Source of the DNA: Escherichia coli
Lineage (GTDB): Bacteria; Pseudomonadota; Gammaproteobacteria; Enterobacterales; Enterobacteriaceae
Length of the DNA: 64,000 nt
Strand: one strand, 5' to 3'
NCBI RefSeq assembly: GCF_017348835.2
Contig: NZ_CP072317.1
This document shows, in pieces, positions 1 to 24,888 of this stretch (the first letter of the stretch is position 1; every line of letters starts with the position of its first letter). The notes under the pieces are model-generated. The model saw only the letters and a program-made list of their open reading frames with translations, searched no databases and had not been told where the DNA came from. The position numbers and the translations under genes are program-made.

Positions 1-3000
1 GTTTCCGGTTACCTTCCGTGCCTTCAAGCGCGATGGCAAAGGTTTCACTCGCCCCCTGCGCACCGTGGGCGGTGATGGCATAAGCCAGGTCAATATGTTG
101 CTCTGCCCGCTCCTGGCCGGGGCGAATCACCCGGGTCTGCTGTCCGTCTGACAACGTGACACTGTCACCGGAAACCGCTGTCACCGTCCAGACGCTGTTG
201 GCCACATAACCGCGCTCCCGGTCACTCTTCGTGAAGCGCATCCGGTCGCCGGTCCCCACCCGGATTTTGTCCGGGGTGTACAGTGTGACACCTTCAGCCA
301 CCGCCTCCCGGGGCGAAATCAGCCGCGTGTTACCTTCCGCATCCTCCAGGGTTATCAGCCCGTCATCCTTGCTGATACCGGCAATCCGGTGATACACACT
401 ATCCACCAGGGCAAGGGCATCCGGGTTATTCTCCCAGGTGGAGAGACGACGCAGCTCCCCGTCACGTATATTCGCTGTGTTCAGGACAGGCACCATGACC
501 TGCTCTTTCCCCAGCTCACCGGCCTTTTCCCGTGCATCATGAATCATGCTGTTCAGTACGCGCCGGTCCTCATTCAGGTGCGTGACAATCAGCGTCTGCT
601 CCCGTGCTTCCGGTGTCCTGCCGGTATAGTCGCGGACAATGGCTTCATACAGTGTCATGGGGACATCCGGAAAAGTCTCACCTTTCAGCATCGCCTTCTG
701 CTGCGCTTCTGCCAGTTTCGCTTCCTGGCTGTGACTGAACTCCGTCACGGAGTGCTCCGGTGCCCATGCGCCCTCCTGACGGGGAACCTGAGACGGTTTC
801 ACACTCTCAAGCCCGGACAGTGCCCTTTCCACATCCCGGTTAATCAGGCTGTATACCGCCTCCCGCAGTTCCGGCGTCTGACGCACAATCTCCTTCATGA
901 TGACCACATCGGCAGCACTGCGCGTCTGCTGGAGACGGAAAGGCTGACCGGGCGCGATGGCCTGCAGCTGGTCCGTGTCACCACTGGCCACGGCACGACC
1001 GCCACCGGCCGCAATCAGGGCGTATGCCCGTGCCATGTCGGTATTGCCCACCATTGAGCTCTCATCGAGCAGGAACAGCGTGTTGCTGAAATCCGGCGTT
1101 TCTCCGCTGCGCTGCTGCAGCTGCGTGTCATGCAGAAAGGACGCCAGCGTCTGTGCATCCACGCCGGCGCTGCGCATCTCACCGACCGCACGGTGCGTGG
1201 GCCCCAGCCCCACAACTCGGGGACGCTCACTCGCCGGCAGCATGTTCACGGCTGACATCACCGCCCGGAACTGTGTGGTCTTACCCACACCGGCATAACC
1301 CTGTACCACCGTGAAACGGTCGGACGTTTCCAGTATCATACGGGTGGCGGCACGCTGTCCCGACGTTAACGTCTCCATGAGTTCGCCGGGTACTCTCTCC
1401 ATCAGCGGCGTGACCGCCTCCTTACCTTCGAGAATATGGCGAAGAATACTTTTTTCTGCCTCATACGACGCACGGGAAACCAGCAGGCCTGTGCCATAGC
1501 CTTTTGCCACATCCACATACAGTAAGTCACCGCGTTTTATCTGCGCATTGATTTCCCCTCCCAGTTCAGTAAAACCGGTTCCTTCTGCAGCAAACGACTT
1601 CGCCTCTGTCAGCAGGTCCACCATGCTGAAGGCCAGGTTTTTACTTTCCAGCACAGGAAGGGCCAGATGAATGGCCTGCTGTGCCGGCGTGTGCAGCCCG
1701 GTTTTCTGCAGACTGATAGCGGTTTCCAGCGATGTCTCACCGGCCCGCGCCTTTATCTGCTCAGAAACCACCGTAAAGGAGGGATGGCGGGCAAGTTTTT
1801 CCGCAGTACGGGTTTCATCCAGTGAGGAATACAGCCGGACATCACGACCGCTGCGGGCCAGACCGTTCAGGGTGGCGTTGTCCATTGCCATCTGTGTGAC
1901 GGAGGCAAACACCGTCGCACTGTCACTGACGGAATGCCCGGGCGTTTCCACCCAGCCGTTCTCCAGCTTCAGTGCCGTGAACGGTGAATCAGCCACAGGC
2001 AGGGTGGCCGGTTCAGCCCGCCCCGGCACAACAACCGTCATCGCATCTTCACTGACGGATGCCACCTGCAGGCGGTCACCGCCGGAGACGCGGAGTCCGG
2101 GAATTTTCCCTGTCACCCTCAGTCGCTCGCCGTCTGCCACCGGCATTTTTTCCGGCCGGAACAGCGACCAGCTGCTGTCCAGGGAGGAAATACGCACCAC
2201 CTGCGTTTCGCCCTGCGCATCCCGCAGGGTCAGGCTGTGACTCTGCGCCGTCACCCGGTCGATAACATAGCGGTCATGACTGCGTGTCTCCGGGTTCCAC
2301 TGCTCCATCACCATCCCCGGTCGGTACATATCCCGCAGATAACGGCTCCGGCTGTCCAGCCAGACCGGTGACAGGGCGGTCATGGTCACCTCCGGGTGTC
2401 CGAGCACGCCCTGTGTTTTCAGCTCACTGCGAATGGCCTGTGTCAGTATGGCCTGTTCCCGTACCCCGCTGACCTGTGCCACGCTCTCTTCTCCGGCTTT
2501 CACGCTGGCCGCAAAATCTCCGGCCAGCCGGTCATAGCGGACATTCCGGTCCGGTTCACTGATGATGGTTGCCGGTCGCTGTTCTCCGCCCTGCCAGCGA
2601 TACGTGTTCACCCCGGCATCCTTCATGGCCATCAGCGCACTGCCTGTACCGGTTCGCTGCCCGCTGTCGGTTATCAGGACCTGTACGTTATGACGTGCGG
2701 CACCATCCAGCAGGGTTAACGTCTCTTTCAGGGAGAGTTTTTCGCCCTGGTCGACGATAACAGTACTGCCCGGCGTGAAGACCATGCCCTCCTGCAGCTG
2801 ACGACGTCCGGTTATCAGCTCACCGGACAGCCGTTCATCCTGCTTCAGGTTCATCTGCGAGCGACGGTCAGCAGCGATAATCTGCACCTCCCGCCCCTGC
2901 TCCCGGGCCATCATGACCAGTTCAGCCACCCGCTCACGCTGCCCGGCTGCACCGCCCTGCCCGGACACAATGGCCAGCGACGGACGGTCCTGTGCCAGAA

Positions 3001-4273
3001 CACTGACCGCATCGCTGTAACCAGCCGTCCGGGGGACACTTTTCTCCGGATGTACGGTCACCCGGTTCTGTTTCATGATGTCACGACTGAGTGCCCGGAC
3101 GGACAGCTCATCGAGCACATGAATTCCTGATGTGAACAGCCCCTTCTCACGGTCGAGGGGGATAAGCTGCTCACGGCTGATGGCCTCATCGATACCGGCG
3201 CGTGCCCGTTCAATCACACCATTTTCCGGCGGCAGTATGCCGACCGTCCTGGCCAGCACGTCCGTATACGTGAACTGCACTTTTCGTTCACTTAATCCGG
3301 CAATCGCCTGTGTCACCGCCTGCTGCACATCCGGCCCGTCCTGTGAAGCAGGCCCGGGCGCCTGCGTGCGGATCTCCGCACGCTGATCCGCCGCGTCACG
3401 ATATGCCCGGATGTCGAACCCGGTTTCCTTCAGCGTCTGCATCCATTCAGCCATTCTGACTTCAGGATCGACGTGCTGTTTGGATTTTCGCGTATCCAGT
3501 GCCGCCACATCCCGGGATTTCAGCGAGGCGTCTTCACCGACGGCCTCCCTGATAGCCTGTGAACGACTGGAAAAGGCCTCCACCGGTACGCCCGGCATCT
3601 CCCACATACCGTGCTTACCGACCACTTCGGTTTCATAACCCAGCGCCTCAACGCGCTGACGTAACTCACTCTGATATATTTTCCCGAACGCAATCCGGTT
3701 CGCTAGCACGTTCTCGGAAAATCCGGTTTTCCCCACTTTGTCACTGCTCAGTGTCTTCCACTCGCCGTTATGCTGCGTGACATTAGCCACCACTACATGC
3801 GTGTGTAACTGTGGGTCCTGATCGCGACTGGTGTCATGGTTAAACAGTGCCATCACCAGATTACCGGTCAGCACCGTTTCTGACTGTCCGTCCGTCATCA
3901 CCCGTGTGGAAGCCAGCGCCTCCACCTGACGGACAGCAAAATCCACGGCCTGGTTATGTGCATCAATAAGACGTTTATCCCCCCCGAGCATGGCCATCAT
4001 GGAGACACTTTTGGGGGCGGAGAAGGTCAGGTCGTAGCCGGGACGATGCTTATTACTGCCATCCTGCATGCGGCTTAAATCCGCCCCGTCCGGCAGCCTG
4101 CCCTCCAGAAGACGGGTAAAAACATCCTTATCGACGCTGCCCTGCAGCCCAAGCTGTTCAGCCCCCTGACCAGCCCAGCGTTCTCCCATGCTGCCCAGCA
4201 CATAGTAATTATCCTTGTCGGTGTAATAGTTTCCGGCACTGCCTGCCGATTTAACAACGCTGAAACTCAACAT
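1..4273 (-). CDS. traI: TraI relaxase/helicase, 5' portion only (3' end lies beyond window start)
   Basis: Reverse-complement translation from ATG at 4273-4271 gives [24 protein letters not shown], the F-like TraI N-terminus; ATGA overlap with traD stop; absent from ORF track because no stop inside window; frame not checked base-by-base to position 1. Confidence 0.85.
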   Translation of the reverse strand, partial: MLSFSVVKSAGSAGNYYTDKDNYYVLGSMGERWAGQGAEQLGLQGSVDKDVFTRLLEGRLPDGADLSRMQDGSNKHRPGYDLTFSAPKSVSMMAMLGGDKRLIDAHNQAVDFAVRQVEALASTRVMTDGQSETVLTGNLVMALFNHDTSRDQDPQLHTHVVVANVTQHNGEWKTLSSDKVGKTGFSENVLANRIAFGKIYQSELRQRVEALGYETEVVGKHGMWEMPGVPVEAFSSRSQAIREAVGEDASLKSRDVAALDTRKSKQHVDPEVRMAEWMQTLKETGFDIRAYRDAADQRAEIRTQAPGPASQDGPDVQQAVTQAIAGLSERKVQFTYTDVLARTVGILPPENGVIERARAGIDEAISREQLIPLDREKGLFTSGIHVLDELSVRALSRDIMKQNRVTVHPEKSVPRTAGYSDAVSVLAQDRPSLAIVSGQGGAAGQRERVAELVMMAREQGREVQIIAADRRSQMNLKQDERLSGELITGRRQLQEGMVFTPGSTVIVDQGEKLSLKETLTLLDGAARHNVQVLITDSGQRTGTGSALMAMKDAGVNTYRWQGGEQRPATIISEPDRNVRYDRLAGDFAASVKAGEESVAQVSGVREQAILTQAIRSELKTQGVLGHPEVTMTALSPVWLDSRSRYLRDMYRPGMVMEQWNPETRSHDRYVIDRVTAQSHSLTLRDAQGETQVVRISSLDSSWSLFRPEKMPVADGERLRVTGKIPGLRVSGGDRLQVASVSEDAMTVVVPGRAEPATLPVADSPFTALKLENGWVETPGHSVSDSATVFASVTQMAMDNATLNGLARSGRDVRLYSSLDETRTAEKLARHPSFTVVSEQIKARAGETSLETAISLQKTGLHTPAQQAIHLALPVLESKNLAFSMVDLLTEAKSFAAEGTGFTELGGEINAQIKRGDLLYVDVAKGYGTGLLVSRASYEAEKSILRHILEGKEAVTPLMERVPGELMETLTSGQRAATRMILETSDRFTVVQGYAGVGKTTQFRAVMSAVNMLPASERPRVVGLGPTHRAVGEMRSAGVDAQTLASFLHDTQLQQRSGETPDFSNTLFLLDESSMVGNTDMARAYALIAAGGGRAVASGDTDQLQAIAPGQPFRLQQTRSAADVVIMKEIVRQTPELREAVYSLINRDVERALSGLESVKPSQVPRQEGAWAPEHSVTEFSHSQEAKLAEAQQKAMLKGETFPDVPMTLYEAIVRDYTGRTPEAREQTLIVTHLNEDRRVLNSMIHDAREKAGELGKEQVMVPVLNTANIRDGELRRLSTWENNPDALALVDSVYHRIAGISKDDGLITLEDAEGNTRLISPREAVAEGVTLYTPDKIRVGTGDRMRFTKSDRERGYVANSVWTVTAVSGDSVTLSDGQQTRVIRPGQERAEQHIDLAYAITAHGAQGASETFAIALEGTEGNRK

Positions 4274-6525
4274 CAGAAATCATCTCCCGGCTCAACATCC
4301 TCCCCGCGCTCCCGGTGCACATTAATGTTCACCTCTTCACGACGCTGCATATGCTGCTGGATGTCCGGATGATTTTCCTGTTGCCATGCCTCATAAGCGG
4401 CCATATCCACCACTTCACCGGATTCACTGATCCCGGGTGGCAGTTGCTGTTCCATCTCTTCTTCCGGTTTCATTTTCAGCTCCTGCTCGATCCCCCCTGC
4501 CGGAACACTCACACCTGCATCTGACTTCTTATCATTGATGACAGAAGACACTGGCTGTTGTGGCTGTTGTGGCTGTTGTGGCTGTTGTGGCTGTTGTGGC
4601 TGTTGTGGCTGTTGTGGCTGTTGTGGCTGTTGTGGCTGTTGTGGCTGTTGTGGCTGTTGTGGCTGTTGTGGCTGTTCAGCCTGAGTCACATCTTCTCCGG
4701 AGGCAACCTCCGGTTCAAAGAGGCTGGCCATCTGACGACCTTCTGCTTCCCTTGCGGCAAGTACGGCACTCAGACGGTTCTCCATTTCCGGGTTGATGTC
4801 ACGCGGAATAAACTCCGGAGCGACCTTCGGTCGTGCCTGATATTTCAGAGAGAGTTTGACTGCCGGATACGGTCCGGGCAGAGTGACATAGCAGGTCAGA
4901 TCCGGCAGAGACTGAATGTCGGAATAACTGACCAGCGTCTGACGCTCCATATCCTTACCGGTCGATACCCCGTCACGTACCGGGTCAGCACCGTAGGAAT
5001 ACTGCTCGCTGGCTTTCAGGTGCTCTTTCTCACCAATCTCACCGGCAGCGAACTCTGCAATCTTATGGCTCGGGGAACGGAAAAAAGCACGGGTGTTCAT
5101 GACGTCAAACAGCGTGGCCGCCGCTTTCTCACCGTAGATATCTTCCAGCTGGGCATAGGACTGGATACCAAACACATAACAGCCACCGAACTTACGGGCT
5201 TCCGGCAGGATCTCCACCAGATCCGGCAGTTTGTGTAACGTGGGTAACTCATCACAGAAAAACCACACACGACGGTTACGGTTTTCTCCCATTGCCAGCA
5301 GACCACGAATGGCAATGGACAGCCACATGGAGATCACAGGCTTCAGGGAGGCATGGGTGTCGGCGTTCGACGAAATAAACAGCCAGCCGTTTTTCTGATC
5401 TTCCCGGACACCACGCATCCAGTCACGGATGGTGAAGGGATCACCGTTATGCTCAATCCCCTGCAGGTAACGGATGGCTTTCACGTAGTTGGTCAGCACA
5501 GCACGGATGGAAATCGCCGTTTTCTCAATTTTCTCTTCCACCAGGTTGGCCGCCGGTGAATTACGCAGGAAGGTACGCAGTTTTTCAATTTTGATGGAAA
5601 GCAGTGTGTCCACCAGTTTGCTGTAGCTGCGGTTGGGGTCATTACGCATCAGGTACGCCGCTTCCGCAAAAATGGTACGTCCTGAACCCTGCCAGAACGG
5701 GTCCTCTTTTGTACCCATAGGGATCAGCGTGTTCGCGGTATTATCAAAATCCGGCTGTGTCAGGCACTCCTTCCACAAATCCCATGCGGCACAGCGGGCA
5801 TCCAGCGGATTCAGGATTTTATCGATGGAGGGATCATAGTAACTTTTAACAAATTCCCCTGAACGGTCATAAATCACCACCATATCACCGCGCTGACGGG
5901 CATAGTTGGCCAGACGACGGATAACCTCCGACTTACCGGCCCCGACCGTGCCGTGCAGACAGAAGTTCTGGATTTCGGAATCCCGGATAATCGGCAGGTC
6001 GCCAATCCGGATATCGGAGTCCTTGCCGTCTTTTTTCAGCATCCGGGCAACGTCTTTCGGATTGTCTGTCAGCTGACGACCACCTGTGACTTCATTTTCG
6101 CTCTGTTGTTTACCCTGACGCCCCAGAATCCAGGAGACAACAAAGAAGGTGATCAGGCAAATAACCAGGGCCACGACAGACGCCAGAACGAATGCAGACC
6201 ATAGCTGCTCTCCGCACCAGATCATATATTTATCATGCAGTACCTGGGCAGCGTTCATCCGGAAGGTTTTGCCGTAATACTGGATCTCATAGACCGGCTG
6301 GGATTTTATTAAATCCCGCATGCCTTCCAGTGACGTACACCACCAGTAAATACAGCCGTTGATAAACGTCTGCCAGCTTATTTTTACCCATAAGACCAGA
6401 CCAATGAGGATCCAGAAAAAAATAAACAGGCAGTAAAGCATGATATTGGCGATCTGGCTGAACATGCGGATACGCATGGACGCAATCTGACCGCCCTGGG
6501 TCATATCCTTTGCGTTAAAACTCAT
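4273..6525 (-). CDS. traD: TraD type IV coupling protein
   Basis: 750-aa ORF, near-identical to F TraD as recalled, Walker [10 protein letters not shown]-terminal QQP repeat and acidic tail. Confidence 0.97.
4554..4675. repeat. 9-bp tandem repeat (CTGTTGTGG, about 13 copies) encoding the (QQP)n tract of TraD
   Basis: Directly visible perfect tandem repeat; in-frame with traD. Confidence 0.95.
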
Positions 6526-6575
6526 GATGAAACTCCGGGAAAATCTGGAACAGGGCAGAAAAGGATGATGTGGGG

Positions 6576-7379
6576 TTAATTCACAGAAACAGACCAGGTG
6601 TACCCTGTATGCCGGTGGTGATGCCCGCCTGCAGTCCTGCCGGAAGAGACCTTCTCTGTAACAATGTCAGTCAGGCGCAATACTTCAGACCAGTCACTCC
6701 CATGCGGAAACTGGATCTGAATAAAAAGGCGTACCCGTTCACGGTGATCCAGAACTGTGTCCGGTTCATAAAAACGGCCACTGTCAGGAGAAACACAGGA
6801 CGTTTTATTGATGAGATCATACTTATCGGCAGGAGACTGCGATGAAATCGCCCAGGTGATATTCTCCGCCTGGTGGCCATCAATACGACTGCTCCCCGGC
6901 GTCCATGCAATTTCCTGCGCACTCGCCACGATGATCTCCCTGGAAACTTCAGCCAGCTTTCTGGGTGTACAGAATACCGGTGCCAGCACACACAGGGACA
7001 ACAAATTACAGCTGACCGCCTCCGGTTTAAGCAAATTGCTCCCGGATTTTTCAGGAAAAGATATTTTTGTCAGTATTTCAGTTAATTCCTTATGCCTGAG
7101 AGAATTAATAAAGTACATGATAAGCATCATGAGAAACAATATAACAATAAGCCCTCCGATAACCACTAAAAGGTCAGTATCAATATTATTGCTGTACAGA
7201 TAGTCTTTAGTGGTCACTGTATTATCCTGTATCACCGGGGGGTATTCAGTTACAGGCTTCTCAGTAAATTGATTATTCTCACCAACATATTCAGCGATAT
7301 TGTCTGATGTCATAATGACTTTCTCCGGAAGATCCCGGCTTCGCCGGCAACACTTCACGGTCGCACAAAGAATTTGCAC
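6576..7379 (-). CDS. hypothetical single-pass membrane protein inserted between traT and traD
   Basis: 267-aa ORF (true start may be internal Met near 7311), one hydrophobic helix, AT-rich relative to flanking tra genes. Confidence 0.5.
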
Positions 7380-8796: not shown

Positions 8797-11619
8797 TTAT
8801 TGCTTATACTTATCCTGATATTCCTTTGCCCTTTTCATCAGTTCCTGTGGACTGTCAGCCCCGGGCATTCTTTCCTGAGCCGACTTTTCTTCATTATATT
8901 TATTATTCTGAGATAATGCCTCTGTTTTATGGTGATTCTGCAGTTCAGAATACTGTCCTCTTACAATATTTTCCTCGCCACGTACGCTGTTCTGAGTATC
9001 ACCTATATTCCCTTTATATTCTGTGACCATATTATCAACCTGATGTTTTACATCATTACGGATATTACTGTCCTGCGTTCTTTGATCAATAATGGCCTGA
9101 TGCCCCTGATGGTCAGCAATAATATCCTGACTGCCACCACCCGAAGGTACGCTCTCCATTCCTTTACCAATATCACCACGGGATTCCCGCCAGGCATTAT
9201 CAACACCAGGCTGTACCTGTTCCTGCACAAAAGACCAGGCCATCGCCCGACGACGTTCTGCAATCTCCGGTGAACTGGTGTTTGTCAGAATAGCTTCTGC
9301 ATCCTGTGGCGCGTGTTTCATTACATACTGTGCAAACTGTTGCGACAGGTCTTCACTCATCTGCCCACTCATGCTTTCAGTACGGGATGCCATTTCAGCA
9401 TATTCATGGCTGCGGGTCATATTCGTCGTGTACTGGTCGTAACTCTGCTTCGCTGAATTCAGGGCTGCAGACAACTGATCCACACGGGAATCAGCATTAT
9501 TGTCCGTATGGCTGCCGGACTCACTGACCTTGCGACTGGTAAAATAATCGCTGGCCTCTTTAAAGTCTTGTGTAGCTCTGGCATCGATATCATGACGAGC
9601 ATTATGGCTCGACTGAGTATTACTACTTGCCGTATGCGCATCATTATCTTCCCAATCAATACCAGCCCGACCACCACCTCTAACGCCTAATCCTCCACCA
9701 ACACCAAGAATTTTAGGTTTAACCCCCCATTCAGCATGAGCATCTCCATACATCCCGGCAGAAGCTCTCGTACTTCTGGATGCCAGTTCCTGAGTCGCCT
9801 GCTCATTACTGATATTATGCGCCTTCGCATAGCTTTCCACTGCACTGCGCATACGGCTGGCCATCATGGAGTCCTGTGCGCTCATCGTGCTGTCAGCACC
9901 ACCTGTGACAGAATCACTGCTCCCCCGGTTAGAACCAAACTGGCTGAGCGAGTTCCAGGCACTGGCAATACTGCTGCTGAACCCATGCAGGGCGCTTTCT
10001 GCTCTGTTCGACGCCTCCCGGGCCATTTCCTGTTGTGCCGCTGCAATCTGACGCGTTGCATTGATACCGACCGGTAACCGGGACATCGCCCCGCTCGCAT
10101 CCATCACCATATTACCGTCACGGGTCTGTGTGGCAGTTGCGCCACTGCCGGTCTGGTACATCATCTGACCAAACGACGTGGTGCTGTTGGTGCTCCAGCT
10201 GAAGCCGTTCACGTTTTCCGTCTGCATGTTGCCGTAGGAGTAATTACCGTCAACCACACTACCTGCCGCACTGGCAGTCGGGCTGATAGCAGAGGAAGCG
10301 AAATGGCTGTACACGCTGGAAAAACCTGCGCCAAGGCCTTTTACCATCATCCATGACAACGGGGGTATCATGACAGATATATATCCGGCAGTGGACGCCA
10401 GGTCGGAGTATTTCAGCTGTATCTGAGAGAGTTCAGAGAGCACGACCGGTGCACCATTCTGCTTTGCATAGAATGTCATGGCACTGTTCAGAATGGCATA
10501 CAGCAACGGCCAGGTCTGGAACCACATCAGAGCAAACACATAGCCTCTCAGAACAGACAGCGTCAGTCTGTTGAAGACAGCCGCCAGTACCAGGAGCGGG
10601 AAGATACCAATGGTAATGCCCACCAGAATGGTCTGCACCATCGGCAGGTTTCGCATCAGCACATGACCAATGGAGACATGTGCCAGACGCTGTTTCTCCA
10701 TCGACGAAGTCGTGGCCAGACTGACCAGGCTGGCGGTATCACCGTTACGGGCTGCATTACTGGTGATACCCTCTTTCAGGGCATTCATGGTGACGTTCTG
10801 GCGCATAATATGACTGGCAGACTGGCTGGAGCCGTAGAAATAACTGTAACTGTCACTCACCAGTTGCCTGAATAACAGGTCCGGGTCCGGTCTGCCGCCA
10901 AATATCTGCTGCACATAATAATGCCAGGTCTTGCCTCCCGTCTTTGTATCGAGATTCAGCCTGTCTTTCAGCGTGACCGACGCATCTTTACAGGTTATGA
11001 AATTATTATTGCTGTCATAAACGCCCCGTAGCGGGCTGGGCCGGGAAAAAATCAGCGTGTAGGGGTCAGCGGAGGCCATCAGGTCTTCCAGCGTGTATTT
11101 GTGGTTCAGGTAAATATCCCCCAGCACGCAGTTCTGGACGTAGTCCTGAAACAGATTGATGATTTCCGGATTCCGGGACAGAAAATCGGTGCTTTTCACA
11201 ATCAGGTTCGCCCCGAACAGCATGCCTGTCTTGCTGTAGGTGGCGCTGTCAGGCTGGGTGAATATCATCTCGTAACTGGCCACCATTGCATGCCCGATAC
11301 GGGTCGTCAGTGAAAGTGGCATCGCCAGTCCGACAGGCACATTATCCACCCGGTGAACCTGGACCAGGTCACTGTTATCAATAATCTGCACCGATGTACG
11401 GACATTAACCAGCAGGCTGATAAGCACAAACACGGCCACCCAGCCCAGCAAATCCATCACGTTGTGCCGCTGTACCCACATCACGGCCACCGCGAGAACA
11501 GACAATGTGAGCGCAATTTTTTCGATGGAATCCCACGTCCGGGTCCCCATAAAGGCGGCAATGGCGTTCAGGTTATTGCGTAACCACTCACCACCGGCAA
11601 TCACATAGACTTCATTCAC
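8797..11619 (-). CDS. traG: TraG mating pair stabilisation protein
   Basis: 940-aa ORF, N-terminal polytopic membrane domain, F-type TraG size and synteny. Confidence 0.93.
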   Translation of the reverse strand: MNEVYVIAGGEWLRNNLNAIAAFMGTRTWDSIEKIALTLSVLAVAVMWVQRHNVMDLLGWVAVFVLISLLVNVRTSVQIIDNSDLVQVHRVDNVPVGLAMPLSLTTRIGHAMVASYEMIFTQPDSATYSKTGMLFGANLIVKSTDFLSRNPEIINLFQDYVQNCVLGDIYLNHKYTLEDLMASADPYTLIFSRPSPLRGVYDSNNNFITCKDASVTLKDRLNLDTKTGGKTWHYYVQQIFGGRPDPDLLFRQLVSDSYSYFYGSSQSASHIMRQNVTMNALKEGITSNAARNGDTASLVSLATTSSMEKQRLAHVSIGHVLMRNLPMVQTILVGITIGIFPLLVLAAVFNRLTLSVLRGYVFALMWFQTWPLLYAILNSAMTFYAKQNGAPVVLSELSQIQLKYSDLASTAGYISVMIPPLSWMMVKGLGAGFSSVYSHFASSAISPTASAAGSVVDGNYSYGNMQTENVNGFSWSTNSTTSFGQMMYQTGSGATATQTRDGNMVMDASGAMSRLPVGINATRQIAAAQQEMAREASNRAESALHGFSSSIASAWNSLSQFGSNRGSSDSVTGGADSTMSAQDSMMASRMRSAVESYAKAHNISNEQATQELASRSTRASAGMYGDAHAEWGVKPKILGVGGGLGVRGGGRAGIDWEDNDAHTASSNTQSSHNARHDIDARATQDFKEASDYFTSRKVSESGSHTDNNADSRVDQLSAALNSAKQSYDQYTTNMTRSHEYAEMASRTESMSGQMSEDLSQQFAQYVMKHAPQDAEAILTNTSSPEIAERRRAMAWSFVQEQVQPGVDNAWRESRGDIGKGMESVPSGGGSQDIIADHQGHQAIIDQRTQDSNIRNDVKHQVDNMVTEYKGNIGDTQNSVRGEENIVRGQYSELQNHHKTEALSQNNKYNEEKSAQERMPGADSPQELMKRAKEYQDKYKQ

Positions 11620-15938: not shown

Positions 15939-17789
15939 TTACTGTCCTGCCTGTTTCAGCTGGTCAGCAATCTGCTCTTTCACTTTCTGCGTCAGAACGC
16001 CACTGTCCGGGATTTTCTGGTTATTCATCAGGTCTTCGTAGAAGTTAGTGAAATCCAGTCTGTCGAACTGAATTTTCTGCAGCTCATCAACCGTAATCCC
16101 CCGACAGTCAGGATGCTTCGCACTGCCAAACCCGATACGCAACTGCCCGTTACGCCCCTGCTGCTGGACTATCTGCGCCAGCTTCGAATCAAACTGGCAG
16201 TAGCTGCGCTTTTTCTGCAGACAGACACCCAGCACTTTCTTCGAACAGAACTCTCCGACACTGACGGTCAGTTTGTTGTCCTTTGCCTTTCCCAGCGCCT
16301 TTTCTTCGCTGTTGCACTTCGCCAGACCCACATCCTGACCCCAGCCACCATCCTTACAGCAGTTACTGAAGCCGGCTGCGGCCTTACGGCAGAATTTCGC
16401 CTCACCCGTGAAAGCCCTGACATCCACACCATTCAGGGCGGCAACATCCTTACCTGCGGCGGCAAGCGCAGCCAGCTGTGATACTGCTTCACCAAAATCA
16501 CTGCTTTTTCCGCTCTGTGCCTTATCGCATTCACCGTCAAGGCAGAAGACATCACCACCACAGACCATCACTTTTCCTGATGTTCTGGACTCGCAGGAGT
16601 ACGTGGCGTACTCATGCAGACAGGTTCCCTCATCGGAATAAAACGCGCACTGACGTGAGGCCAGCGTACAGGCCGGATTATCGACATATTTCTGACAGGT
16701 GCCGTTATCTGCGGACTGAGTGACATATTTATCCCGGTATGCCCAGCATGCCTGTGTGATGTTCCAGGGTTTACCTTCCATCACTCCGGTTTTCGTACCA
16801 CCCGGCTCTGAACACTCAGTGCCTGTCAGCACGCCATCCGCTTTATTAAACGGACAACTCTCCACCCACTCCACCCGGGGAACCCATTCTTTATCACGGA
16901 CCTTCATCCTGAGTTTCAGCGTAAAGGTGGAAGCACCACTGACAAGCGATTCATAGACTTTCCTGTCACCATTCCCGTGCGGGAGGCAATTACCGTTAGC
17001 AGTACAGCCACTACCGGTCAGAACCTGCCCCTGTGTCACCTGCAAACCTGTCGCCCCGGACAGGGGGTAAGTATCCGACTGCCCGTTTGCCAGGCCGACA
17101 TTAAAGGTTGTATTCATGAAGGTATAACGGGAGTTCAGGAAGAAAAAAGCGGCGTATACAGACAATGATGCACTTTCCACTGTACCGGTTACCGGAGCCG
17201 TGACACTGAACACCAGTTTCAGCCCGTTCATACTGAACCGGAACTGTGAGTGCGGTATCGTCACTTCACGATATTCATCCGTGTATTTCCAGTCCCCGGT
17301 GATACTGGCAGTCCGTGTGCAGTACTCCTCCACCATCGTGTCCCGCTCACAGGTATAGTTTGTGAATTCACTGCGGTTTATCTCCTGCGCACTGCACTGC
17401 TGTCCGGTATTTCCCACAATGCTGTCAGCCCGGTTCACCACATCCCTGCCGGTCTGAATGAACGGTGCATCCGGTGACAGAATGTCTTTCGGCTTGTTCA
17501 TGAAGGACTCTGTGATGGTTTTTCCGGTTTCACCGGTCGCCCATTCCGTGGTGCCGTCATTTTTCAGGCCGCCATCCCCGCCGGCAGTCACGCCACCGTA
17601 ATATTTTGTCTCGTCCGGATTCGCGTTATAGCTGGGGATACTCTCCTGTGGCTTAAAGCCCTGAATACTGCCTGTACCCTGCCCCTGAATCTGACGGGCA
17701 AAATCAGAACCGGCCCGGTAATCACTGTTGCTGTCAGCCTGTGCCATGCCGGCAACCAGAGCCAGTATCAGAGGTAAAATACGTTTCAT
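15939..17789 (-). CDS. traN: TraN outer membrane mating pair stabilisation protein
   Basis: 616-aa cysteine-rich ORF with signal peptide; F-type TraN. Confidence 0.95.
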   Translation of the reverse strand: MKRILPLILALVAGMAQADSNSDYRAGSDFARQIQGQGTGSIQGFKPQESIPSYNANPDETKYYGGVTAGGDGGLKNDGTTEWATGETGKTITESFMNKPKDILSPDAPFIQTGRDVVNRADSIVGNTGQQCSAQEINRSEFTNYTCERDTMVEEYCTRTASITGDWKYTDEYREVTIPHSQFRFSMNGLKLVFSVTAPVTGTVESASLSVYAAFFFLNSRYTFMNTTFNVGLANGQSDTYPLSGATGLQVTQGQVLTGSGCTANGNCLPHGNGDRKVYESLVSGASTFTLKLRMKVRDKEWVPRVEWVESCPFNKADGVLTGTECSEPGGTKTGVMEGKPWNITQACWAYRDKYVTQSADNGTCQKYVDNPACTLASRQCAFYSDEGTCLHEYATYSCESRTSGKVMVCGGDVFCLDGECDKAQSGKSSDFGEAVSQLAALAAAGKDVAALNGVDVRAFTGEAKFCRKAAAGFSNCCKDGGWGQDVGLAKCNSEEKALGKAKDNKLTVSVGEFCSKKVLGVCLQKKRSYCQFDSKLAQIVQQQGRNGQLRIGFGSAKHPDCRGITVDELQKIQFDRLDFTNFYEDLMNNQKIPDSGVLTQKVKEQIADQLKQAGQ

Positions 17790-18436
17790 TTCCCGGAATC
17801 TCCTTTCCCTGCCAGTAAATCATGAGCCACCTGCCGGCAGTCACCCGTGGCGGCCACTTTCTCCAGCGCCTGGCCGACCCGCAGGTTTCCCCGGATGATG
17901 TCGTATCCCTGACTGCAGAACACCACCAGTGCCGGTACACTGCGAATGCCGTACTGTGAAAACAGCGTCGGGTCGATCTGAACACCATCAGTCGCGCCGT
18001 CTTTCACCAGGGACAGCACGGCTTCAGCGGTGGTCTTCAGGTCATTGTTCACCATGCCCCGCAGTGTGGCGGGTATACCGTAGTGCCGGGTTTCGCCCAG
18101 CATCCGTTTCAGCCCCTCTTCGGGAATGGAAAACGACACAAAATACAGGGCACCCTGCCGGGGTTTCCCGTCCTGCGAAGCCTGCTGTTTACGAACCAGC
18201 TCATCCAGAAAATGGTTATCTGAACGCTGAAGGGGGTTTTCCAGCACCTGTTTCTCCGCCCAGGCTTTCAGCTGATGGTCAGGTTTCTCTCGCAGTTGTC
18301 TGCTTAAATTTTCCTGCTGCTTCAGGAACTGGCGGTTTTCAGTTGTGTTCACATTTTCTGAAGCATGAACAGCAAGATGCATCCCTGCTGTCAGAGCAAA
18401 AAGTGCAAATATTTTCCGGTTCATGATATTTCTCAC
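17786..18436 (-). CDS. trbC: TrbC pilus assembly protein
   Basis: 216-aa ORF with signal peptide, F TrbC synteny. Confidence 0.9.
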   Translation of the reverse strand: MRNIMNRKIFALFALTAGMHLAVHASENVNTTENRQFLKQQENLSRQLREKPDHQLKAWAEKQVLENPLQRSDNHFLDELVRKQQASQDGKPRQGALYFVSFSIPEEGLKRMLGETRHYGIPATLRGMVNNDLKTTAEAVLSLVKDGATDGVQIDPTLFSQYGIRSVPALVVFCSQGYDIIRGNLRVGQALEKVAATGDCRQVAHDLLAGKGDSGK

Positions 18437-18744
18437 TTTCTGCTATTTACAGGCATGAACTCATCAGAAAAAAGATAATTGAGAAAAACAGCCACAAACG
18501 CACATGTAAATGTCACCTTCAGATATAATCTGACAAGTGTCACTTGTTCTGATATATCTGCGTTCTTCCATTCATGAATAATTTCAGCGAGAAAACTGTC
18601 AGGTGCAAAATAAAATAATATAACGGGCACTATTACAAGACCAAAAGGAAATAATTTTAATGTTCTGCTTATCAGCCTGAGCAGTACAGCACTTATTTTC
18701 CTGAGGTGCTGAATATATTTACTGTCCATTGTTGCCATTTTCAT
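18433..18744 (-). CDS. hypothetical membrane protein between traU and trbC
   Basis: 103-aa AT-rich ORF with hydrophobic helices, translationally coupled to trbC. Confidence 0.4.
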   Translation of the reverse strand: MKMATMDSKYIQHLRKISAVLLRLISRTLKLFPFGLVIVPVILFYFAPDSFLAEIIHEWKNADISEQVTLVRLYLKVTFTCAFVAVFLNYLFSDEFMPVNSRK

Positions 18745-18767
18745 TTCCTCTTATTCATTAAAATGAT

Positions 18768-19760
18768 TTACAGGAATACACAGTTACGTTTACGCCACAT
18801 CAGGTAGCCGAAGTTTTTCTTTGTGTTGGGCGGATTTTTTCCCGTCTCCCAGCGCATCACACTGCGCCCGAACGGATGGCACTGTCCGCTGTCCGGATAC
18901 ATATTCACCATCTGATAACGCCAGCGTTCTTTAGGCAGGATTGGGGACGGATATTCATTACAGACGGCGTTATTTTTCCCGATGGTTTCCATAATCATGC
19001 CCTGACGGTGTAGTTTGAACGCCATGCGTTCACTGACCAGCAGGGAGGACTGCAACGGACTGGACTCATTACTCACCCAGCCATTGAACGGGTACATACT
19101 GCCCTGCGAACCGGCACACCAGAACAGAACATCGAGAGGCATATTAAAGGCGCTGGCAATGGCATCTGCTGCACAGGCCCCCTGTGCTATCGGATTGGCA
19201 AAGATGACAGCTTCCGGATTGAGAATGGTGGTCAGGCTGCTGTCCGTCCAGGTGGGGTCAATTTCAGAAAGATAAGCGATATCCAGGTCACCACCTTCCA
19301 GACAGCCCAGCGATGTGATGATGTTAAGCCAGTACGTCAGCGGGTATTTGTACCAGTGAACGTGATAGAACGCCCCGTTCACCTGCTTCTCATCCTTTTT
19401 CGCCGTTCCCTGTGCCGTTTTACCAAAAGCCGGCAGGCTGAAGCCCAGGTTCACCATGCATCCCGGTGACCGGGTGACGTCCGTCAGCGCCATCGGCTCC
19501 CAGTAACCAATGGCCAGCCCGATACGCCTGAACAGCGGCGGCGGTGCCGGACAAATCTGAATGGGCATCGACGGGTTCGCCGTGTCGGGGACCTTACCCT
19601 GACTGACTTTGATACTGCCCAGCGAGAGCGGGAAAATACAGCTCCAGCAGATATCCGTGATCGGGTTTACAAAACGCCCCTCACAGGCAGAATCCGCAGA
19701 TGCCGCAGGGACATGACCGGCGAGAAGGAATAACATCAGCAGCCACAGGCTTCGCTTCAT
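18768..19760 (-). CDS. traU: TraU pilus assembly protein
   Basis: 330-aa ORF with signal peptide matching F TraU. Confidence 0.95.
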   Translation of the reverse strand: MKRSLWLLMLFLLAGHVPAASADSACEGRFVNPITDICWSCIFPLSLGSIKVSQGKVPDTANPSMPIQICPAPPPLFRRIGLAIGYWEPMALTDVTRSPGCMVNLGFSLPAFGKTAQGTAKKDEKQVNGAFYHVHWYKYPLTYWLNIITSLGCLEGGDLDIAYLSEIDPTWTDSSLTTILNPEAVIFANPIAQGACAADAIASAFNMPLDVLFWCAGSQGSMYPFNGWVSNESSPLQSSLLVSERMAFKLHRQGMIMETIGKNNAVCNEYPSPILPKERWRYQMVNMYPDSGQCHPFGRSVMRWETGKNPPNTKKNFGYLMWRKRNCVFL

Positions 19761-23524: not shown

Positions 23525-23899
23525 TTAACGTTCCTTTACTGAATGAGCATCATTTAATGCCTGAATTTGTTTTTCGCGAATCTTATTGCGCTCATTTTCT
23601 CTTACACGTTTCACCTCTGCCATTTCGTTTCTTTTTCTGCATTCTGATGCGATTTTATTTGCCTTACCAAGTGTTAAAGGTTCAGACTGATAATTAAGTG
23701 TCTCCTGAAATGCTTCTGCTGCACAGGGAGTTTCCTGTAAAATCTCTGTCAGTTGTTCTGGTGTTGCAGGTTGTTGCGCAAGGTAAACGATGTAAAAAGG
23801 AATACATACAATCATAGCCATAACGCCAACAAATATAAAAGCCAGAACAGATTTTAAATATATCGACTTCATTTCATTTTCCTTCGAAGCAGTAAGCAC
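23525..23899 (-). CDS. hypothetical membrane protein (cargo between traR and traC)
   Basis: 124-aa ORF, N-terminal TM helix plus basic coiled-coil tail, AT-rich. Confidence 0.45.
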   Translation of the reverse strand: MLTASKENEMKSIYLKSVLAFIFVGVMAMIVCIPFYIVYLAQQPATPEQLTEILQETPCAAEAFQETLNYQSEPLTLGKANKIASECRKRNEMAEVKRVRENERNKIREKQIQALNDAHSVKER

Positions 23900-24118
23900 T
23901 CATTGCCCACCACCATTTAGTGTTTCCATCACGCTGTTCAAAGGTTCATTTGTTTTAACTTCAATACACTCCCCTGTATTTCCAAAGCCCCTGCCGCCAT
24001 GTGCTTCGATTGTCCGAAGAACCTGCACGCATACGTCCGTATTTGGCATGGGTGTAATATTCCAGCTTCCGCCACCGTTAATATTTTTTATCAGCACAAG
24101 AAAAATAAAGGTATGCAT
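23900..24118 (-). CDS. hypothetical small protein (cargo between traR and traC)
   Basis: 72-aa ORF adjacent to neighbours, AT-rich. Confidence 0.35.
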   Translation of the reverse strand: MHTFIFLVLIKNINGGGSWNITPMPNTDVCVQVLRTIEAHGGRGFGNTGECIEVKTNEPLNSVMETLNGGGQ

Positions 24119-24197
24119 TCTTTATTATCTCCGCTTGTATATTAATCACTGAATATCCCTTCAGTTAACTTATGAGGTCATAAAACACTGCAGATTC

Positions 24198-24674
24198 TCA
24201 TTCGGATTTATTCCCTTCAGTAAACTTCCGAATAGTATCCTGTTCACGCTGACGGGTGGCAGACTCCTGCATTGCATCCACTTTCTCCTGCCAGAGACGC
24301 CGGATATCCTGTTCATCCCGACCAGTCAGTTTTTTACCGGACAACAAACGGTTAAGCAGTTCCTGTCTCACATCTGGTACGTCTTCAGTCAGACGCATAA
24401 GCCGGAGTAATTCCTGACGACTGAGTACCATGCGTGATTCCTCCGGTACGCTGTAATAATTAAAAATACGACTGAATACCCCACAACAGCAGGCAACGGA
24501 CAGGCACAGGGATTTCAGATACAGGCCAGAAACACAGAATGTGGCAACACCACAAAGAATAGCTATAACTAAAAATCCCTTACCCAGTGCCATACACAAA
24601 GAACCCTGTTTTCTGGATATCCGCTCATGCTCATCCAGAATAAAATCTATTTTTTCATTTTCTGATTTATGCAT
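24198..24674 (-). CDS. hypothetical membrane protein (cargo between traR and traC)
   Basis: ORF 24198..24713; probable start at internal Met; cysteine-rich TM segment. Confidence 0.45.
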   Translation of the reverse strand: MHKSENEKIDFILDEHERISRKQGSLCMALGKGFLVIAILCGVATFCVSGLYLKSLCLSVACCCGVFSRIFNYYSVPEESRMVLSRQELLRLMRLTEDVPDVRQELLNRLLSGKKLTGRDEQDIRRLWQEKVDAMQESATRQREQDTIRKFTEGNKSE

Positions 24675-24888
24675 AGTGTTTCCTCTGCCTTTCCTGATAC
24701 GCCTGACATTCAACGCACAACGTCACACCGGGAAATATTTTCCGCCGGGCTTCCGGAATAGGATTTCCGCATGCTTCACAGAGATAAACAGGAATACCAT
24801 GAACATTTATTTCCTGGCGTATCCGGTTTATTCCTGTCATGGTCAGTTGTTCTGTCACTGAATATGCTTCATCGGCTTCATCACTCAC
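24667..24888 (-). CDS. traR: TraR DksA-like zinc-finger protein
   Basis: 73-aa ORF with CxxC...CxxC motif, matches F TraR. Confidence 0.9.
   Translation of the reverse strand: MSDEADEAYSVTEQLTMTGINRIRQEINVHGIPVYLCEACGNPIPEARRKIFPGVTLCVECQAYQERQRKHYA

Follow-up and report, generated by a model that had tools for sequence, protein, structure and literature searches.

What is the small, AT-rich reading frame that lies between traU and trbC in the transfer operon of some F-like plasmids, and does it encode anything of use to them? We analysed it in a stretch of 64,000 nucleotides of Escherichia coli DNA (contig NZ_CP072317.1; hereafter the window), for which an original prediction, made from the letters alone, had described a hydrophobic protein of 103 amino acids that does not belong to the F core set and is translationally coupled to trbC.

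The reading frame between traU and trbC

The frame is intact and runs over 103 codons from ATG to TGA at positions 18433..18744 of the minus strand, the tra operon strand of the window, in the same orientation as its neighbours traU and trbC. With a GC content of 0.35, as against 0.55 in the two flanking genes and 0.51 across the window, and with the two hydrophobic helices predicted for its product, it is indeed a small AT-rich membrane ORF in the position originally described. The features of the locus, all on the minus strand, are the following.

18768..19760: traU, which lies upstream and bounds the variable slot on the left.
18746..18752: Shine-Dalgarno-like AAGAGGA of ygeA, within the 23-nt traU-ygeA spacer (18745-18767).
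18739..18744: two added codons (ATG AAA) of the maximal, 103-aa ygeA ORF, whose upstream start lies 2 nt from the Shine-Dalgarno motif.
18433..18738: ygeA coding sequence with the favoured start (ATG 18738-18736, TGA 18435-18433), product of 101 aa.
18425..18432: ygeA-trbC spacer, GAAATATC, 8 nt from the TGA stop to the trbC ATG.
17786..18424: trbC, lying downstream, with a product of 212 aa from ATG 18424.
18362..18424: first 21 codons of trbC (signal peptide MNRKIFALFALTAGMHLAVHA), where the segment that diverges from F has its right-hand part.

Over the 601 bases around the frame, the window shows 100% identity with Shigella flexneri plasmid R100 (NC_002134.1) and with many IncFII resistance plasmids; aligned without gaps over 12.6 kb, the window and R100 agree at 97% of positions. 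The gene, ygeA, is thus real and already catalogued as a gene of R100-type plasmids. Its annotation and that of its relatives are inconsistent: RefSeq gives the product as a hypothetical protein (WP_000224416.1), UniProt names the 103-aa form 'YgeA' (Q6SJ10, from pC15-1a), and other YgeA entries read 'uncharacterized membrane protein' or 'conjugative transfer protein'. In plasmid pSTEC1585_2 an intact 103-aa ygeA-like ORF with a good Shine-Dalgarno motif (2501-2809 of the extracted locus, L002) is unannotated in the RefSeq record. The gene serves as a map landmark in a paper on the ST131 plasmid pEC958, and the survey 'Five Shades of F' is limited to genes defined in F; our literature search found no functional study of ygeA, no mention of WP_000224416 and no discussion of an ORF between traU and trbC. 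What is modestly new here concerns the corrected starts, the quantified presence, absence and allele structure of the gene, and its tie to a small family associated with type IV secretion systems (T4SS).

Translation starts of ygeA and trbC

The stop codon of traU is followed by ATCATTTTAATGAATAAGAGGAA ATG AAA ATG, i.e. by the intergenic spacer and two candidate starts, the first of which (18744) lies 2 nt and the second (18738) 8 nt from the Shine-Dalgarno motif. The upstream start, giving the 103-aa form, is used by some database entries and the second ATG by RefSeq; the AAGAGGA motif is kept in the alleles of pSTEC1585 and pSLK172-2, and the homologous spacer of other alleles offers a single start at a distance similar to that of the second ygeA ATG. 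Because the spacing, the RefSeq start and the other alleles all favour it, the second ATG is likely to be the start codon, and the product most likely comprises 101 residues instead of the 103 originally proposed.

The claim that the ygeA stop codon overlaps the trbC start fared no better, as it rests on a GTG at 18436 that is not the conserved start of TrbC. RefSeq places the start at ATG 18424, and our alignment of TrbC from seven plasmids, some with a different gene preceding trbC, has the N-terminus M-x-R/W-K-I at the corresponding ATG in the six plasmids with a ygeA-like gene. Judged from these sequences, trbC most likely starts at ATG 18424, leaving a spacer of 8 nt between the two genes. 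In F, where nothing intervenes, the traU stop and the trbC start are separated by the same 8 nt, which agrees with the original view of the ORF as lying outside the F core set. Translational coupling or re-initiation across the short ygeA-trbC spacer is plausible. A scan of the ygeA ORF returned no promoter consensus on either strand and no terminator consensus, and the gene would presumably share the transcript of the long tra operon and be translated by way of a Shine-Dalgarno motif of its own.

The segment that differs from F spans the DNA between the traU stop and the end of the TrbC signal peptide (about 18362-18767): trbC codons 1-21 have 40-50% DNA identity to F, as opposed to 87-100% further downstream. 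There is a break in F/R100 homology at the cleavage site of the signal peptide, which might mark the boundary of a cassette; we rejected this reading, since the F signal peptide resembles that of pSLT (8/18 positions alike in an alignment inspected by eye); the break is therefore better read as the outcome of a hypervariable signal peptide combined with allele exchange. The TrbC signal peptide varies strongly between plasmids (MKLSMKSLAALLMMLNGAVMA in F, MNRKIFALFALTAGMHLAVHA in R100), the mature protein being nearly identical. As a whole, trbC displays high synonymous diversity and mosaic alleles, exemplified by that of pWS0115A, whose 5' end is R100-like and whose 3' end is pSLK172-like.

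Evidence for a protein-coding gene

An AT-rich island in a GC-richer operon, with a product that matches no known protein family, could in principle be a non-coding spacer, such as an H-NS-bound or other regulatory element or an RNA gene, that happens to contain an open frame. The comparative data effectively refute this reading, which we regard as very improbable. At the base composition of ygeA a random frame of 101 codons stays open with p ~6e-4, and the ygeA frame stays open in many diverged alleles, with the lengths of the ygeA-like proteins held at 100-105 aa across the divergent alleles of the slot. Similarity is retained at the protein level down to 25-30% identity; pairs of alleles exhibit dN/dS values of 0.22-0.53 (Nei-Gojobori method), and their differences are distributed over codon positions in the order 3>1>2 in nearly all pairs. 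Purine-rich, Shine-Dalgarno-like runs precede most members. The alignment is marked by Pro31, by FYFxP closing the first transmembrane helix (TM1), by an S-D-x-I-x-x-W motif in the loop and by L-x-R-L-Y-L-K leading into the second helix; Trp57 is shared by every one of the 21 full-length members aligned. No RNA family was recovered from Rfam at E<=1 between 17700 and 19800, and the strand opposite ygeA has no ORF of 40 aa or more. Since protein conservation, codon pattern and Shine-Dalgarno motifs point the same way and RNA or promoter signals are missing, we reject the non-coding reading; ygeA is, with high probability, a genuine protein-coding gene. Conservation and a translation signal, the two things whose absence would have told against the ORF according to the original prediction, are thus both present.

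Presence, absence and exchange at the slot

A tblastn search of YgeA against 72,556 plasmids yielded homologues in 2025 plasmid records, 1157 of them at 90% identity or more and 861 below 60%. Plasmids pSLK172-2, pSTEC1585, pWS0115A and pSLT, as well as a Salmonella IncFIB plasmid, each have an allele of 25-65% identity at this position, so that the homology search and survey of F-like plasmids suggested at the outset reveal a conserved ORF with divergent alleles in one place. The R100 allele is found in 823 of 5426 complete E. coli genomes (15%), almost always on plasmids; at least 80% of the ygeA sequence is retained in 874 of 882 E. coli records, and, the partial match aside, every row sampled from them has an intact coding sequence in its annotation.

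There is no ORF between traU and trbC in F itself, and an 80-nt probe across the F junction detects the empty traU-trbC site as a contiguous sequence in at least 1430 plasmid records. With traU joined directly to trbC in F and in so many other plasmids, ygeA is dispensable, and because F manages without it, the gene is not needed for conjugation as such. Where a gene is present, the slot has been exchanged by recombination, as indicated by the comparison of R100 and pSLK172-2, in which TraU has the same protein accession and the adjacent YgeA proteins are only 45% identical.

Other alleles bring additional cargo, namely an ORF of 173 or 150 aa before trbC, and a 123-aa ORF together with an HNH endonuclease gene between trbC and traN. 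In pSLK172-2 (locus L003) this cargo is arranged as follows.

2860-3381: 173-aa ORF.
4043-4862: 123-aa ORF and HNH endonuclease gene.

The 173-aa, 123-aa and HNH partners are all absent from R100. The Pfam library, including the SNase family, gave no identity for the 173-, 150-, 180-, 156-, 158- and 123-aa neighbours of the other alleles.

Several further loci deserve mention. In L024, a duplicated 66-aa fragment of TraU (PF06834; 3599-3799) follows two inserted ORFs of 180 and 148 aa and stands just upstream of the ygeA-like gene; it looks like a recombination scar at the 3' end of traU. In L023, traU is followed by two tandem, diverged ygeA paralogs (3590-4780), the second of which is fused in frame to the 173-aa ORF to give a product of 259 aa (P0055), which suggests a functional link between the YgeA-like and the 173-aa proteins, with the 173-aa part in the cytoplasm. 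The window itself contains a second AT-rich island (GC 0.38-0.42) on the minus strand at 23525-24700, upstream of traC, with ORFs such as 23525-23872 (115 aa, hydrophobic N-terminus) and 23900-24118 (72 aa). The corresponding region holds four hypothetical proteins in the RefSeq record of R100 and only traR before traC in F, and seems to be a further slot for variable cargo, like that of ygeA.

Selective constraint within the R100 allele

Within the R100 allele the constraint on ygeA is weak. Among 11 R100-type sequences with 10 replacement and 5 silent segregating changes in ygeA, pN/pS is 0.55, compared with 0.07 for traU and 0.16 for trbC, and pairwise values obtained earlier were close to 1. 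There are also frameshifted variants, as well as truncated ones at low frequency.

These values raise the question of whether the R100-type gene is a decaying remnant of a larger accessory module, like those of pSLK172-2 or the IncX plasmids, that now drifts without a function. The absence of the partner genes from R100, the relaxed constraint, the truncated variants in databases and the complete loss of the gene from F would all be expected under such decay. Against it speaks the near-complete retention in E. coli reported above, as does the contrast between the exact protein, present on at least 1000 contigs, and the truncated forms, none of which occurs on more than 13. The replacement changes are conservative (I/M, V/A, L/I), and a frame of 35% GC, if neutral, would gain stop codons fast. 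We therefore consider a functionless remnant improbable.

The YgeA protein

YgeA has a GRAVY value of +0.60 and two hydrophobic stretches. The 101-aa form can be divided into the following parts.

1-28: basic N-terminus.
~29-46: TM1.
47-69: acidic loop with the invariant Trp57.
~70-90: second transmembrane helix (TM2).

An AlphaFold2 (AF2) model built from the family alignment (mean pLDDT 81) has helices at residues 6-44, 47-59 and 62-90. The 28 N-terminal residues carry charges of +6/-1 and the loop +1/-5, which by the positive-inside rule argues for a hairpin with both termini inside and an acidic loop in the periplasm. From this distribution and the model we infer that YgeA would be an inner-membrane, N-in/C-in helical hairpin, consisting of a cytoplasmic, basic and amphipathic N-terminus, TM1, an acidic periplasmic loop helix of about 23 residues, TM2 and a short cytoplasmic tail. 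YgeA shares with the rest of the ygeA-like family full-length homology, Pro31, FYFxP and Trp57, along with the predicted architecture of two hydrophobic helices, a basic N-terminus and an acidic loop.

Database searches offered no match that would suggest a more specific role. Pfam and NCBIfam returned only noise for YgeA, far below the cut-offs (DUF3810, E 0.58; SstT, E 0.03); PADLOC gave no hit; and PHROGs gave none for the R100 protein and only noise-level scores for its relatives (E 0.05-0.19). The family profile had 0 matches among PDB sequences at E<=10, and a Foldseek search of the model against the PDB produced nothing significant (best E 6.5). The lipobox expected of an Eex-type exclusion protein is not visible in the sequence. 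TrbE was tried as a possible relative on account of its similar two-TM architecture and dismissed at an hhalign probability of 0.5%, and a family HMM run over all ORFs of the window and of the F tra segment detected no paralogue. Nor does ygeA resemble a type I toxin or small-RNA locus, given a product of 101 aa as against <60 aa, the lack of a promoter consensus in the ORF and the lack of an Rfam match.

A small family in conjugation clusters

Profile searching with YgeA gathered only 46 clusters of a small and rapidly diverging family from 1.84 billion representative proteins. The most distant members are marginal by score (E 2e-5 to 8e-5), and for the weakest the gene context counts as much as the score; wherever their context is readable, the distant members lie inside conjugation clusters of the VirB/Trb type. 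Every ygeA-like member examined on a long enough contig is part of a conjugation cluster, and none of them lies in a phage or a chromosomal island.

The contexts are varied. In L014 the ygeA-like gene comes after genes for the coupling protein and a TraF-like S26 peptidase in a TrbH/TrbI/CagX cluster, and is directly followed by a 158-aa homologue (6411-6887; E 3e-10) of the 123-aa ORF of pSLK172-2; small genes of this kind therefore co-occur across unrelated transfer systems. In L021 the gene follows VirB4/8/9/10/11, a coupling protein and TrbM, and in the IncX5 plasmid pBK31567, which carries a separate EexN lipoprotein, it follows a coupling protein and a Cag12-family gene. It stands directly after a 612-aa repeat protein in L019, a contig that also has a Cag12-family gene, and the MOBP plasmid pO177B2 has a gene for a YadA-like protein upstream of it.

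In pO177B2, L016, L021 and pBK31567 the ygeA-like gene abuts or overlaps the start of a gene for an SNase-family thermonuclease, which carries a signal peptide; in three of the four the two genes overlap by 4 nt. A nuclease of this kind is absent from R100. The pairs are located as follows.

L026 (pBK31567), 9001-9809: ygeA-like gene and thermonuclease gene.
L021, 8001-8809: ygeA-like gene and thermonuclease gene.
L006, 2414-3219: ygeA-like gene and thermonuclease gene.
L016, 420-1243: ygeA-like gene and thermonuclease gene.

What YgeA may do

With high probability, ygeA is a real gene for an inner-membrane protein, dispensable, horizontally exchanged and expressed with the tra operon. As its family occurs almost only in conjugation clusters, and in those of two types of machinery, YgeA is predicted to work with the T4SS, a functional tie that is drawn from gene neighbourhood. 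Its most likely role would be that of an auxiliary membrane factor acting beside the mating-pair-formation machinery or beside companion cargo (nucleases and small proteins), as opposed to a structural core subunit. Taken together, a real, exchanged membrane gene of the tra operon whose product is a partner either of the T4SS or of accessory cargo is the reading that we consider probable, with moderate confidence in the statement as a whole.

Gene neighbourhood alone does not separate a helper of the T4SS from cargo riding in a well-expressed operon. YgeA might accordingly be a hitch-hiker (a 'moron'), an acquired membrane protein that uses the tra operon for its expression and confers a benefit unrelated to transfer, for example because the donor is shielded from male-specific phage, from the weapon of a competitor or from a companion nuclease, or because of a specificity of the exclusion or immunity kind. 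This would fit the foreign base composition of the gene, its presence/absence polymorphism among plasmids, the very deep divergence of its alleles beside an identical TraU, the tandem diverged paralogs of L023 and the repeated adjacency to an SNase nuclease, an HNH endonuclease and ORFs of 123-180 aa. It sits less well with the lack of any PADLOC defence-model or PHROG match and with the confinement of all members judged to conjugation clusters, none having been seen in a phage or chromosomal island; moreover, R100 lacks the companion genes, yet ygeA is intact in hundreds of plasmids. Mere cargo is thus a possibility to be kept in mind, if a rather unlikely one. A more far-reaching proposal, which we put forward tentatively and hold to be unlikely, is that the YgeA-like proteins form an unrecognised inner-membrane family tied to conjugative T4SS, common to F-type and VirB/Trb-type systems, and fitting a determinant of mating specificity or self-protection rather than inert cargo. 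The pattern behind it comprises the cassette exchange, the fast diversification with deep alleles, the tandem paralogs and the recurrence beside nucleases and small proteins.

Few vehicles of antibiotic resistance are commoner in Enterobacteriaceae than R100-type IncFII transfer regions. A gene that so many plasmids would express together with the pilus-assembly genes, and that the laboratory model F does not have, is a minor gap in the F paradigm. Should ygeA affect mating, sensitivity to phage or the fitness of the donor, differences between F and clinical IncF plasmids could in part be explained by it. The practical significance of an annotated hypothetical protein that is non-essential is modest.

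Comparison with known systems

The YgeA of R100 and pC15-1a (Q6SJ10; WP_000224416.1) is identical to ours in sequence and position, i.e. it is the same gene. Analogues exist in the small Trb membrane proteins of F (TrbE, TrbD, TrbF, TrbJ and TrbA), which F genetics has found to be non-essential. YgeA is likewise short, hydrophobic and dispensable, and its gene is wedged between essential tra genes, co-directional with them and tightly packed; it differs from the small Trb proteins in having no sequence relationship to them, in its absence from F and in its foreign base composition.

Closer by descent is the ORF of pSLT (WP_010999945.1; Q93GM9, 'conjugative transfer protein'), a member of the YgeA family at 25-30% identity that has the same slot and motifs and a product of 102 aa. 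Unlike ygeA, it overlaps trbC by 16 nt, has a GC content of 0.44 and is accompanied by an HNH endonuclease gene after trbC. The protein WP_015256850.1 of IncX5 plasmid pBK31567, 77% identical to the YgeA-family member P0053, is also a two-TM protein encoded inside a T4SS operon; unlike ygeA, its gene belongs to a VirB-type (MPF_T) system and abuts that of an SNase-family nuclease.

In its predicted form, a small N-in/C-in hairpin with a charged C-terminus, YgeA recalls the Class II (two-TM) holins and the type I membrane toxins. It differs from them in that it has no PHROG or Pfam similarity, that an antisense promoter or RNA was not detected and that its gene belongs to an operon of essential genes; with 101 aa, it also exceeds the type I toxins in size.
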